Assembly (NCBI GenBank): GCA_965248835.1
Contig: CBDFLJ010000002.1
Coordinates: 256,001 to 320,000, forward strand
Direction: 5' to 3'
Source: Alphaproteobacteria bacterium
Lineage (GTDB): Bacteria > Pseudomonadota > Alphaproteobacteria > MPNO01
Length of the DNA: 64,000 bases
Shown: piece after piece, positions 7,361 to 45,260 of the stretch
Layout of the letters: every line of letters begins with the position of its first letter
Numbering within the stretch: position 1 is the first letter of the stretch
Program-made: the position numbers and the translations under genes
The notes under the pieces: generated by a model
The model's input: the letters and a program-made list of their open reading frames with translations, nothing else
Told to the model about the DNA's origin: nothing
Database searches by the model: none

Positions 7361-7741
7361 TCAGCCCCCGAAGGCGAGCTTGAGGATGGCGAACGCCGCG
7401 GCGATGCCCAACGCCACGGCGGCAAACTTGACGGCCAGGATCGACGCGATCTTGAGCCATTCGGTGTGGACGTAGTCCTCGATCACCACCTGCAGGCCGA
7501 GCTGGGCGTGGTGAAAGCCGGCCACCACCGTCAGCAGCATCGCGATCGCGACCAGCGGATCGCCCATCCACGCCGCGAAGGCGGCATGATCGGCGCCGGT
7601 ATTCGCGGCAAGCGTGGCGACAAACCATACCGTCAGCGGCACCAGGGCGACCGCCGTGGCGCGCTGCGCCCACCAATGCGCGGTCCCATCCCTGGCCGAA
7701 CCGAGCCCGCGCGCGCGCGCCAGCGGAGACCGCAGGCTCAT
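7361..7741 (-). CDS. sdhD: Succinate dehydrogenase hydrophobic anchor subunit
   Basis: MSLRSPLARARGLGSA..HWWAQR..HAQLGLQVVIEDY; ATG overlaps sdhC stop (ATGA). Confidence 0.95.
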   Translation of the reverse strand: MSLRSPLARARGLGSARDGTAHWWAQRATAVALVPLTVWFVATLAANTGADHAAFAAWMGDPLVAIAMLLTVVAGFHHAQLGLQVVIEDYVHTEWLKIASILAVKFAAVALGIAAAFAILKLAFGG

Positions 7742-8136
7742 GCGAACGCTCCCAAGCTGGCATACCCCCAGATCCAGGCGATGGCCGTCAGGACCACCGC
7801 AGCCAGCACGACCAGCCAGCCCGAGGCGTGGACGGTGTTCAGCCCGAAGCCGCGCCCGGCATCCCAGAACAAGTGCCGGATCCCGTTGCACAGGTGATAG
7901 AACAGCGCGAACGACCAGCCGGCCAGAAGCAGGCGGCCGATCGCCGATCCGGAGAAATTCTGGAAAGCGCCATAGGGCCCCGGTCCCGACGCACCGGCGA
8001 TCAGCCACCAGACCAGCATCAGCAGGCCCACGCCCAGCGCCACGCCGCTCGCACGGTGGGCGATCGACAGCACGGAGGTGATTTGCGGTCGGTAGATCTG
8101 AAGATGCGGGGACAGAGGCCTGTCGGTGTCGGTCAT
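7738..8136 (-). CDS. sdhC: Succinate dehydrogenase cytochrome b556 subunit
   Basis: RPLSPHLQIYR, SIAHRASG, HLCNGIRHLFWD. Confidence 0.97.
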   Translation of the reverse strand: MTDTDRPLSPHLQIYRPQITSVLSIAHRASGVALGVGLLMLVWWLIAGASGPGPYGAFQNFSGSAIGRLLLAGWSFALFYHLCNGIRHLFWDAGRGFGLNTVHASGWLVVLAAVVLTAIAWIWGYASLGAFA

Positions 8137-8251
8137 CGATCCTGTCGCGATTCCGCGCCGGTCGCGGCAACGGCCCGGTTTAGACCGCAGCCCAATTCAA
8201 GTCAATTCTCGCCCCGAGCCGGGCGGCTTGGCCCGCGGCTTGTGGACCGTT

Positions 8252-8299
8252 TGTGGATAAAATGTGCGGGGTTGGACCGCCCGATAGCACTTATTCACA
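8252..8299. promoter_or_regulatory. Pair of DnaA boxes in opposite orientation
   Basis: TGTGGATAA (8252-8260, reverse complement of TTATCCACA) and TTATTCACA (8291-8299, fits TTATNCACA). Confidence 0.55.
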
Positions 8300-8396
8300 G
8301 GAATCTGGGCCGCCGCGCGATTTGCCGTTGCCGCCGCGCGGAACGGTAGGAGACGATTATCGCGCGCGCAGGCGTGGGAGATGTCGGGGTCTAACG

Positions 8397-8910
8397 GAAG
8401 AAGACGCTGCGCGGTCGTTCTTCTTCGATTGGCCTTGCCGTCTCCGCGAGGCCTGGAGGCGTATTGCGCCGGACGGGTCTCGCTCCGCTCTGGTGAAGGG
8501 TCCGTACCTCCGCGGGCCTTAGCCGGTTGGCGGGGAGTCCGTGGAACGTTGGAGGGAGAGGCACCACCAAGCAGGCCGATGCCGTTTCGACGGTGGGGGT
8601 CGTCCGGTCCAAGGCTGATTGCAACCGCGATCCGCAGCGGGCCGGGCCGAGGTCGGGATGTTTTCCCCGAAGCATCGTGACCGGGAGCGAAAAGGTGCCG
8701 TGGCGGACCGCGGATTGCCCGGCTACGGGGTGCCCTGCCCGTTGCCGCAGGCCGATGTTGCGCCAAGGACATCGATCGAACGCTTGGGCCCGGACCCTGG
8801 GACCGCCCGCGCGTCGACGGGCCTTTGGGCTCACGGGGTGCCGAGGATGTCCGCAAGGACGGGGGCAAGGCCACATGGCCGCCCCACTCGGCACCCCGGC
8901 ATTCGGGGCG
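8397..8910 (+). ncRNA. Candidate large structured non-coding RNA of unrecognised class
   Basis: No credible ORF; more than 10 nested and adjacent helices with G-U pairs, UUCG and GCAA tetraloops on the + strand (see findings). Confidence 0.6.
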
Positions 8911-8933
8911 CCTTGCATCTGGGATGATCGCGT

Positions 8934-9833
8934 TCAGCAGGCGCTGCGTTCCAGCGCCGCGATGCGCTCGGCCAGCGCCAGCGTGCGTTCGGCCTCCGCC
9001 ACGTGCAAGCCTTCGATCAGCTTGCCGTCGAGCAGCGTGACGCCCTTGCCTTCTCCGGCCGCGTCCCGCCAGGCTGTGCGGACCCGCCGGGCCCAGTCGA
9101 GCTCCTCGGCCGACGGGCCGTAGGCGGCATTCGCCCCCGCGATGGTCTTGGGGTGGAGCAGGGTCTTGCCGTCGAATCCGAACGCACGCCCCTGCCGGCA
9201 GGCGCGCTCGAACCCGGCATCGTCGGACAGATCGAAATGCGGCGCATCGAGCACCGACAGCCCGGCCGCGCGCGCCGCCAGGATGCACAGCCCGATGCTG
9301 GTCAGAAGCGGCAGCCGGTCGGGCGCGTGCAGGTCGGCGTGGAGTTCCTTCGACAGATCCGCCGTCCCCAGCGTCAGCGCGCCCATCCGCGGATGGGCAA
9401 AGGCCGTCGCGCGCGCGTTCAGCACGCCGATCGGGGTCTCCAGCATGCACCAGATCGCGGTCCGGGCCGTCGCGTCGGCCTCTTCGAGGAGCGCCGCGAC
9501 CCGCAGGACCGTCTCCGGCCCGTCGACCTTGGGCACCAGCACCGCATCGGCGCCCGAACCGGCCACCGCCGCGATATCGTCCTCGAACCAGACCGTGTCG
9601 GCGCCGTTGATGCGCACCACCAGCTCACGCGGACCGTAGCCGCCGGCCGCGATCTCGGCGAAGACCCTCGCGCGGGCCTCTATCTTGGCCTCGGCCAGGA
9701 CGCCGTCCTCGAGGTCCATGATCAGGACGTCGGCAGCCAGGCTCCTGCCCTTCTCGAGTGCGCGCGGGTTGGCGCCCGGCATATAGAGCGCGCTGCGGCG
9801 CGGGCGGACGGGTCTGTCGGCATGGGCGGGCAT
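8934..9833 (-). CDS. CitE/malyl-CoA lyase family CoA-ester lyase
   Basis: RPRRSALYMPG, DLEDGV, VVRIN, PKV, MLETP, GFDGKTLLHP, LDGKLIEGLH. Confidence 0.92.
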   Translation of the reverse strand: MPAHADRPVRPRRSALYMPGANPRALEKGRSLAADVLIMDLEDGVLAEAKIEARARVFAEIAAGGYGPRELVVRINGADTVWFEDDIAAVAGSGADAVLVPKVDGPETVLRVAALLEEADATARTAIWCMLETPIGVLNARATAFAHPRMGALTLGTADLSKELHADLHAPDRLPLLTSIGLCILAARAAGLSVLDAPHFDLSDDAGFERACRQGRAFGFDGKTLLHPKTIAGANAAYGPSAEELDWARRVRTAWRDAAGEGKGVTLLDGKLIEGLHVAEAERTLALAERIAALERSAC

Positions 9834-44883: not shown

Positions 44884-44951
44884 CGTTCCGGCCGTTTGTT
44901 TTCCTGCTCGAGCGAACTTCAAATTAGGACCGAATCGTCCTATATTATCAA

Positions 44952-45260
44952 TGCCGGGTGACCGGCTATGGCGATAAACGGCTTGTGTAATAAGCGTAGC
45001 GGACCCGGGGGCAGTACCCGGCGCCTCCACCAAAGCCCGGTTCGCGCCGCCGATACGGGAAATCCCGTGCCAGCGGCGCCCCGATATTGGGGGCGAAACA
45101 GGATCGACGCGCGTGTAAAGGCTTGCTTTTCGCTCGGCATGGTACCGCCGTTATCGGGCCAATCTGACAGATGCCAACGACAACGATTTGGCACTCGCTG
45201 CCTAGTTTTTCTAGGTAAGCGCGGCCCGGGGGGCGCCGGGCAACAGAAGCCCCCCAATTT
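44952..45260 (+). ncRNA. ssrA: Two-piece (circularly permuted) tmRNA
   Basis: Acceptor piece ends CCCGGGGGCAGTACCCGGCGCCTCCACCA (45032); second piece starts GGGGGCG (45089), pairing CGCCTCC with a G-U at position 3; tag ORF 45173-45205 ANDNDLALAA-stop; outer ends approximate. Confidence 0.95.

Follow-up and report, generated by a model that had tools for sequence, protein, structure and literature searches.

Large structured RNA classes are rare in bacteria, and the ones described earlier had unexpected architectures. OLE, ROOL, GOLLD and raiA, whose functions are partly known at best, are free-standing RNAs of several hundred nucleotides (nt) that were found comparatively, are not leaders of a downstream gene, and carry many hairpins, often with GNRA or UUCG-type loops, together with a long-range closing stem. 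In all of these respects they resemble the element described here, which lies beside sdhC in a 64,000-nt stretch of an alphaproteobacterial genome (GenBank assembly GCA_965248835.1, contig CBDFLJ010000002.1, positions 256,001 to 320,000), hereafter the window. Positions 8364-8919 (+ strand) of the window are, with little room for doubt, the gene of a free-standing structured noncoding RNA (ncRNA). It differs from the four classes in that it has no similarity to their Rfam models, its hosts make up a part of the Alphaproteobacteria, its interior is far less conserved than its ends, and an array of DnaA-box-like 9-mers lies upstream of it. To our knowledge, no upstream DnaA-box array has been described for OLE, ROOL, GOLLD or raiA. 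A free-standing ornate RNA therefore has precedents; for this family and its regulatory arrangement we found none. GOLLD, ROOL and OLE are also reported to form homo-oligomers (PMC12286853).

Other described systems share some features with the sdhC-linked RNA. RNAs of the CsrB/RsmZ type sequester proteins and are built from repeated hairpin modules; the sdhC-linked RNA is similar in the variable number of its interior hairpin modules and in what appear to be a promoter and a terminator of its own. Unlike CsrB/RsmZ, the copy in the window has no internal repeats, and the family has a long-range closing stem and conserved, nonrepeated hairpins. A CsrA-type sponge was considered and rejected. 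CsrA (PF02599) was not found in the genome, which is reported to be 100% complete with 9.5% contamination, and ANGGA is not enriched in the family, with a mean z of 0.51 and 1 of 26 sequences above 2 (26 of our 36 sequences were counted, leaving out the short forms and those without a placeable 5' end). The window copy contains 4 ANGGA motifs compared to 1.8 expected (z 1.7). CcnA is shorter than 200 nt, is driven by CtrA and base-pairs with the ctrA and gcrA mRNAs. It is described as a cell-cycle ncRNA of Caulobacter (PMC8959179). The sdhC-linked RNA is likewise an alphaproteobacterial ncRNA with a tie, proposed here, to cell-cycle or replication regulators, but the proposed link consists of DnaA boxes. 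The datA and DARS loci of Escherichia coli are DnaA-box clusters outside oriC. Here, too, several DnaA-box-like 9-mers lie in a noncoding stretch away from the origin and from dnaA (C1:1.82 Mb), whereas in our case they keep a constant distance to a promoter-like pair and occur together with a structured RNA. We found no description of the RNA in the literature, subscription journals not being covered; the main text of PMC8632094 and PMC6429828 mentions neither sdhC nor DnaA, the motif-listing supplements of both lying outside the look-up.

The fold signal of this region is real and confined to one strand. For 8397-8910, the segment put forward by the original prediction, the minimum free energy on the + strand is -284.5 kcal/mol compared to -255.6 ± 6.0 kcal/mol for 100 dinucleotide shuffles (z -4.80), and none of the shuffles folds as well. 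The - strand gives a z of -0.65, and 26 of 100 shuffles fold equally well or better. As controls, nine 514-nt pieces from elsewhere in the window were folded on both strands with 25 shuffles each; these 18 folds have a mean z of -0.39 (standard deviation, 0.95) and a minimum of -2.40. The values agree with the proposal that the + strand fold is more than GC-rich chance pairing. Many G·U pairs, workable on the + strand only, occur in all of the helices, which also fits an RNA on that strand. The corresponding gaps of two other genomes, folded in the same orientation, gave z values of -3.03 (G003) and -7.65 (G037), compared to -0.34 and -5.81, respectively, on the other strand.

The gap between sdhC and the citE-like gene, window positions 8137-8933, is noncoding, since GC content per codon phase is flat (0.54 to 0.82, no phase prominent, compared to one phase at 0.84 to 0.96 in the flanking genes) and none of the five mechanical open reading frames (ORFs) overlapping it has a Pfam match at E ≤ 0.1. 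The observation that started this work, an 800-bp gap without a credible ORF, holds. Within the gap G exceeds C on the + strand, and the GC content of the region is 61 to 73% with no AT-rich stretch. As also predicted, the next gene is convergent. A riboswitch or 5' leader was rejected for the RNA, as no same-strand gene follows directly downstream.

Searches against Rfam 15 returned a single match at gathering score in the whole window, the alphaproteobacterial two-piece tmRNA (RF01849, 263 bits) at 44914-45258 (+), which agrees with the statement that tmRNA is elsewhere in the window. In 8100-9000, searched at E ≤ 10, the best match (E 1.3) reached 17.3 bits, where the gathering score is 71, and seven homologous loci gave no match at E ≤ 1. 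The models tested include RNase P, group I and II introns, SRP, tmRNA, 6S, the cobalamin riboswitch, OLE, ROOL, GOLLD, HEARO and raiA, and none of them recognized the RNA. The family is absent from Rfam 15. A miniature inverted-repeat transposable element or another repeated mobile element was rejected as well, the genome containing one full copy and one further 33-nt match at 88% identity.

BLAST searches with the stretch against 41 relatives, 78 genomes of the order and plasmids recovered only the first 78 nt beside sdhC or chance-level matches of 23 to 53 nt, which can be attributed to the variability of the RNA interior. Homologues were obtained through synteny and covariance models. When the sdhC neighborhoods of 30 genomes were compared, several showed a long gap upstream of sdhC that has no coding signal and opens with the same motif as in the window, direct 9-mers at 11- to 12-nt spacing plus one inverted 9-mer. 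The RNAs in these positions are 100 to 1000 nt long and share one layout. The gaps of family f4 are similar enough to be matched by BLAST, in 11 of the 78 order genomes, all of them f4. We built a covariance model (R1) from the last ~160 nt of 11 f4 sequences, leaving the window sequence out; RNAalifold predicts 41 pairs in the alignment. R1 matches the window at 8751-8906 (+) with 52.2 bits and an E value of 5.2e-11 in 135 kb that include the whole window, where the next-best match has 12.5 bits, and in the same search it matches G037 (E 9.7e-7) and G003 (E 0.0023). The 3' domain of the window RNA, composed of hairpin b, the 3' strand of the closing stem P1, a small hairpin and a Y-shaped stem, therefore fits a model built without it.

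A whole-genome search with R1 found one place each in 21 of the 78 order genomes (13 of 26 in f4, 7 of 25 in f3, and the genome of the window itself), those in G034, G025 and G031 lying ~1 kb from sdhC. A second model, R2, rebuilt from 21 matches, found 12 of 151 genomes in a sample of the class with one genome per family, our own included, and 1 of 151 in a sample of the phylum, our own only. Six of 11 class matches have sdhC in the locus, a seventh does when more flank is added, and for another the contig stops before the neighborhood can be judged. In G078, a clear member (E 1.2e-9, with boxes and promoter) has MlaC and GGDEF-EAL genes as its neighbors; sdhC does not occur within 4.5 kb of it, so the RNA is linked to sdhC by old synteny only. 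The matches in G166 and G126 are weak, have no sdhC within 4.5 kb and were not counted as members; the slice of G166 that was read contains no boxes. In the family of the window genome only G003 joins by model (E 0.028); G004 (108 nt) and G036 were assigned to the RNA family from their anatomy alone. Negative results on distribution hold for the genomes searched and for the 3' domain, the part that the covariance models cover. The RNA is not lineage specific. Its family occurs in a portion of the Alphaproteobacteria, with position and paired ends conserved in several families of the order and also outside it.

The family shares one order of parts. The box array is followed after ~35 nt by -35-like and -10-like hexamers 17 to 18 nt apart, and 6 to 8 nt further on by the 5' strand of P1, a stem of 10 to 13 bp; then come the interior, hairpin b, the 3' strand of P1, a small hairpin, the Y stem and, mostly, a U-rich tail. 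The interior, 60 to ~900 nt in length, is a series of stable hairpins, and GNRA or UUCG-type loops cap many of them. It is far less conserved than the ends, and the number of similar hairpin modules varies (for example, in G174 and G094). Short forms of 108 nt (L044, from G004), 228 nt (L050, from G075) and 330 nt (L054, from G064) still contain promoter, closing stem and terminal stem, but most of the interior is missing from them. Natural length variants from ~110 to ~1000 nt thereby define a minimal core made of the closing stem, hairpin b and the 3' domain.

The pairs of this core covary. Across 21 sequences of the 3' domain, 92.5% of cells are paired, compared to 37 to 48% with partners slid by 1 to 3 columns, and 26 of 41 pairs are changed on both sides; none of 500 shuffles reaches the observed values. 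For hairpin b, 6 of 9 pairs are changed on both sides in the same number of sequences. Hairpin a, aligned in 12 sequences, has 91.7% of cells paired and 4 of 5 pairs changed on both sides; the stem being a GC repeat, its control slid by +2 also reaches 85%. For P1 we searched for the best duplex between the 14 nt after the promoter and the last 215 nt in 36 sequences, and 24 of them have one of -14 kcal/mol or better that starts 82 to 136 nt before the 3' end. Several different compensated versions of P1 occur across the family, the one in the window among them. It has 9 standard pairs and one A·C mismatch, with two positions doubly changed relative to the commonest family version, and its duplex of -19.3 kcal/mol starts 118 nt before the RNA end, within the ~80 to 140 nt at which members have their closing stem. 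A fold with P1 forced reaches -303.1 kcal/mol, 5 kcal/mol worse than the free optimum of -308.1 kcal/mol.

Taken with the one-strand fold, these covarying homologues and the lack of an explanation by Rfam, repeats or protein remnants support the original prediction of a free-standing large + strand ncRNA, possibly of a new class; for folding, homology, covariation and known families, the refuting conditions that it had named did not arise. Its details needed more revision. The complementary segments that we checked are located as given, and the helices 8397-8404/8419-8426, 8580-8595, 8651-8682, 8720-8747, 8753-8774 and 8834-8845/8887-8898 are kept by the minimum-energy fold, the family or both. 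Three long-range helices (8428-8437/8610-8619, 8469-8475/8601-8607 and 8785-8794/8824-8833) appear neither in the constrained fold nor in the family and are probably not the real ones; where the last of them was placed, the family has the 3' strand of P1 and the small hairpin. Helix 8627-8635/8710-8718 is present only in the unconstrained fold. The start had been put at 8397 and probably lies ~30 nt earlier. Coordinates are collected in Table 1.

Table 1. Features of the sdhC-linked RNA gene and its surroundings (window positions)
Feature	Position	Strand	Remarks
RNA	8364-8919	+	~550 nt; putative start, from the promoter-like pair, near 8364; end between 8898 and 8919
Promoter-like pair of the RNA	-35-like 8328-8333; -10-like 8352-8357	+	Putative; 18-nt spacer
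Closing stem P1, 5' strand	8365-8374	+	Pairs with 8804-8813
Closing stem P1, 3' strand	8804-8813	+	Placed by model alignment and duplex search
First long stem-loop	8377-8445	+	Predicted only; includes hairpin 8397-8404/8419-8426
Hairpin a	8651-8682	+	Inner stem 8657-8661/8672-8676; conserved C-rich loop
Hairpin b	8751-8777	+	Helix 1 of the 3' domain model; stem 8753-8759/8768-8774
Small conserved hairpin	8819-8832	+	Helix 2 of the model; between P1 and terminal stem
Y-shaped terminal stem	8834-8898	+	12-bp stem 8834-8845/8887-8898 around hairpins 8849-8860 and 8862-8885
Three direct 9-mers	8241-8249, 8252-8260, 8263-8271		11-nt spacing; middle one a perfect DnaA-box consensus, reverse
Forward 9-mer	8291-8299		Perfect DnaA-box consensus; ~60 nt before the -10-like hexamer
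sdhC promoter-like block	8178-8205	-	-35-like and -10-like hexamers; outside the RNA gene, on the other side of the shared control region
sdhC	7738-8136	-	Flanks the gap on one side
HpcH/HpaI (citE-like) gene	8934-9800	-	Pfam E 1.5e-39; other flank of the gap

The first bases of the long stem-loop resemble those of one relative (locus L049). By eye we also noticed an 8-bp complementarity (one G·U) between 8349-8357, the -10-like region, and 8921-8930, the bases just before the citE-like stop codon, adjoined by a second match of 7 bp (8368-8374/8910-8917). The first of these is probably due to chance, since its 5' arm precedes the putative RNA start.

The upstream alignment shows that both hexamers of the RNA promoter are kept at 17- to 18-nt spacing across order and class and end 6 to 8 nt before the closing stem. 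Ahead of them lie the 9-mers that we call boxes, defined as being within one mismatch of the DnaA-box consensus 9-mer TTATNCACA; the window has two perfect and two weaker DnaA-box-like 9-mers within 60 bp. We counted boxes in 30 of the 36 sequences, leaving out L049, whose slice is cut short, and L083, L090, L097, L099 and L100, whose 5' anchor is misplaced. At least two boxes are present in 29 of the 30 members in the 94 to 115 nt upstream of the promoter, where the density is 75 in 3370 nt (2.23 per 100 nt) compared to 15 in 87,230 nt (0.017 per 100 nt) in the rest of the loci. Box positions are fixed: counted back from the -10-like hexamer, the two reverse boxes lie at ~113 and ~101 nt and the single forward box at ~60 nt. 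The forward box starts at slice positions 54 to 76 in the 30 members and at 70 to 76 in the full-length slices of 167 nt; the window has boxes at slice positions 26 and 65, as in other members, and the phasing of 11 to 12 nt is kept across the family. The 4.9-Mb genome of the window contains 15 perfect boxes, and 11 of its positions (10 places) fit the spacing pattern of two boxes.

The array belongs to the RNA gene rather than to sdhC, as boxes and RNA occur together. Among 30 sdhC upstream regions, at least two boxes are found in 7 of the 8 with the RNA, compared to no box at all in the 22 without it, and in G078 the boxes accompany the RNA where sdhC is not a neighbor. An origin of replication (oriC) was rejected for the array. 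The GC-skew extremes of contig C2 are at 1.23 and 1.99 Mb, not at 0.264 Mb, GC content is 0.61 to 0.73 throughout, and the unit is absent from G002, a complete genome of the same genus.

The reading that we favor, and consider probably correct, is a free-standing, trans-acting structured RNA whose synthesis is controlled by DnaA. DnaA would bind the box array at 8241-8299 and control the RNA promoter; transcription would proceed from the promoter-like pair at 8328-8357 and end at the terminal stem; the first bases of the transcript would then pair with 8804-8813 through P1 and close the whole RNA body. Over evolutionary time, interior hairpins would be gained and lost as modules with hairpins a and b retained. 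The parts of this reading differ in strength. The fixed box array suggests that DnaA sets the RNA level, a step to which we would give an even chance. RNA genes controlled by the replication initiator are rare, and this would be one of them if the boxes are real. A trans-acting role as folded scaffold or binding platform, not exerted through the neighbors of the RNA, is a tentative proposal and, taken by itself, rather doubtful. A two-part RNA is suggested by the conserved ends, by the short forms and by the interior, which varies and in some members is repeated: P1, hairpin b and the 3' domain would be the core that counts, and the interior would work through the number or bulk of its hairpins or need only be stable.

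Several points weigh against this picture. The RNA gene is known here from sequence and a predicted fold, none of the four sequencing runs that contain the stretch being an RNA run, and DnaA binding is proposed on the strength of a nine-letter consensus only. A sigma-70 consensus scan of 8100-9000 called no promoter, the RNA promoter having been placed by conservation. No U run follows 8898 in the window, where most relatives have a U-rich tail after the Y stem, and a terminator scan of 8100-9000 returned no site, so that no intrinsic terminator is recognized. The 3' domain alignment leans toward structure because it was fitted to the model. E values of the models are rough. An R2 match in G012 (E 0.009) lies within a coding region and is false. 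The interior is too variable for detection by BLAST. Natural short forms of the RNA exist. G002 lacks the RNA altogether, the sdhC-citE-like gap being 199 nt compared to 863 nt here and aligning only at its ends, and the RNA was not found in any of the 12 genomes of genus g6. Its absence from G002 and g6 indicates that the RNA is dispensable and that most of its length may be under weak constraint.

Action in cis is an improbable alternative, although the best surviving one. The divergent transcript could tune the sdhC promoter, pair with the sdhC leader or form a roadblock against the convergent citE-like gene, and indeed most members lie upstream of sdhC with the box array midway between two promoter-like blocks. 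The block on the sdhC side would be the sdhC promoter; it was not called by the consensus promoter scan, and it is kept upstream of sdhC in the relatives that were read, with and without the RNA. This last fact argues against action in cis, as genomes without the RNA retain the block. So does the G078 member with its entirely different neighbors, and in one family of the order the gene downstream is not citE-like (we take it to be asd-like, from its C-terminus). Pairing with sdhC fares no better. In a crude RNAduplex test on the 22 of 36 sequences whose locus includes the sdhC start, duplexes between each RNA and its own sdhC start were no better than those with shuffled targets (mean z -0.02; 0 of 22 below -2).

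The element might also work as DNA, as a box cluster that titrates or reactivates DnaA or as a secondary origin, its fold being incidental or formed in single-stranded DNA. With two perfect and two weaker boxes inside 60 bp in a genome that has so few perfect ones, a two-box spacing found at only 11 positions and a phasing kept across the family, the array by itself would suit such a role. What makes it very unlikely in our view is the rest of the unit: conserved pairs lie 100 to 650 nt away from the boxes, with many G·U pairs that work on one strand only, and in relatives the folded part has a promoter-like pair at one end and a U-tailed stem at the other. There is moreover no GC-skew extreme or AT-rich stretch here, and the sister species lacks the unit. 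Finally, a decaying, functionless insert left by a mobile element or a lost gene at a site of gain and loss is scarcely credible, for although the site is a hot spot (G002 lacks ~660 nt and six g6 genomes have another insert) and short forms exist, the RNA is single copy with neither coding periodicity nor a Pfam match, its homologues in other families and orders keep their pairs by compensating changes, and throughout the class the promoter spacing is conserved together with the array upstream.

The sdhC/citE-like junction itself is a hot spot of gain and loss. In six g6 genomes (L022, L026, L028, L033, L038 and L042) it holds a + strand insert of two genes, a TacA-like antitoxin (PF08681, E 5.9e-22) and a GNAT acetyltransferase (E 6e-10), and in a seventh (L043) the gap is only 178 nt. 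The RNA as a remnant of this gene pair was rejected, tblastx between the gaps having given end matches only.

Outside the window, one of the 10 places with the two-box pattern in the same genome, C1:454100-454475 (locus L109, 3600-3975), resembles the sdhC-linked unit. Its first part (C1:454,100-454,300) is AT-rich, with 40 to 45% GC, contains four DnaA-box-like 9-mers and has a UbiD-like gene as its left neighbor; the boxes are followed by a promoter-like pair and then by ~200 nt ending in a Y-shaped, U-tailed stem. With filters off, R2 matches this stretch with 24.4 bits (E 6.8e-5 in 7.3 kb); the default whole-genome R2 search did not report the locus, and its fold z is only -0.95. The 3' part is 80 to 92% identical in 18 of the 78 order genomes, our own included, and the 18 comprise 11 of the 12 genomes of g6, a genus in which the sdhC-linked RNA was not found. 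In G003 the copy shares its upstream layout with the sdhC-linked RNAs and contains three repeated interior modules, and in G004 it has a 95-nt unit in 2.8 copies. We regard a smaller paralogue of the sdhC-linked RNA at this locus as a lead, not a result.

If the lead were followed to its end, part of the Alphaproteobacteria would have a superfamily of modular structured RNAs with at least two paralogous lineages, the sdhC-linked one and the smaller one at C1:454 kb, in which phased DnaA-box arrays drive promoters and variable hairpin arrays bind or sequester some partner, linking replication control to central metabolism or growth. With promoters driven by DnaA boxes, such RNAs would report the state of the replication initiator. 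This is a speculative extension that we think unlikely to hold in full.

Duplication may also occur within a locus. G206 (L090 and L101) has two 3' domains of the family on one strand, at a distance of ~870 nt from each other. At the end of the upstream copy a terminator-like module is repeated two to three times. The arrangement points to a tandem duplication of the RNA gene.

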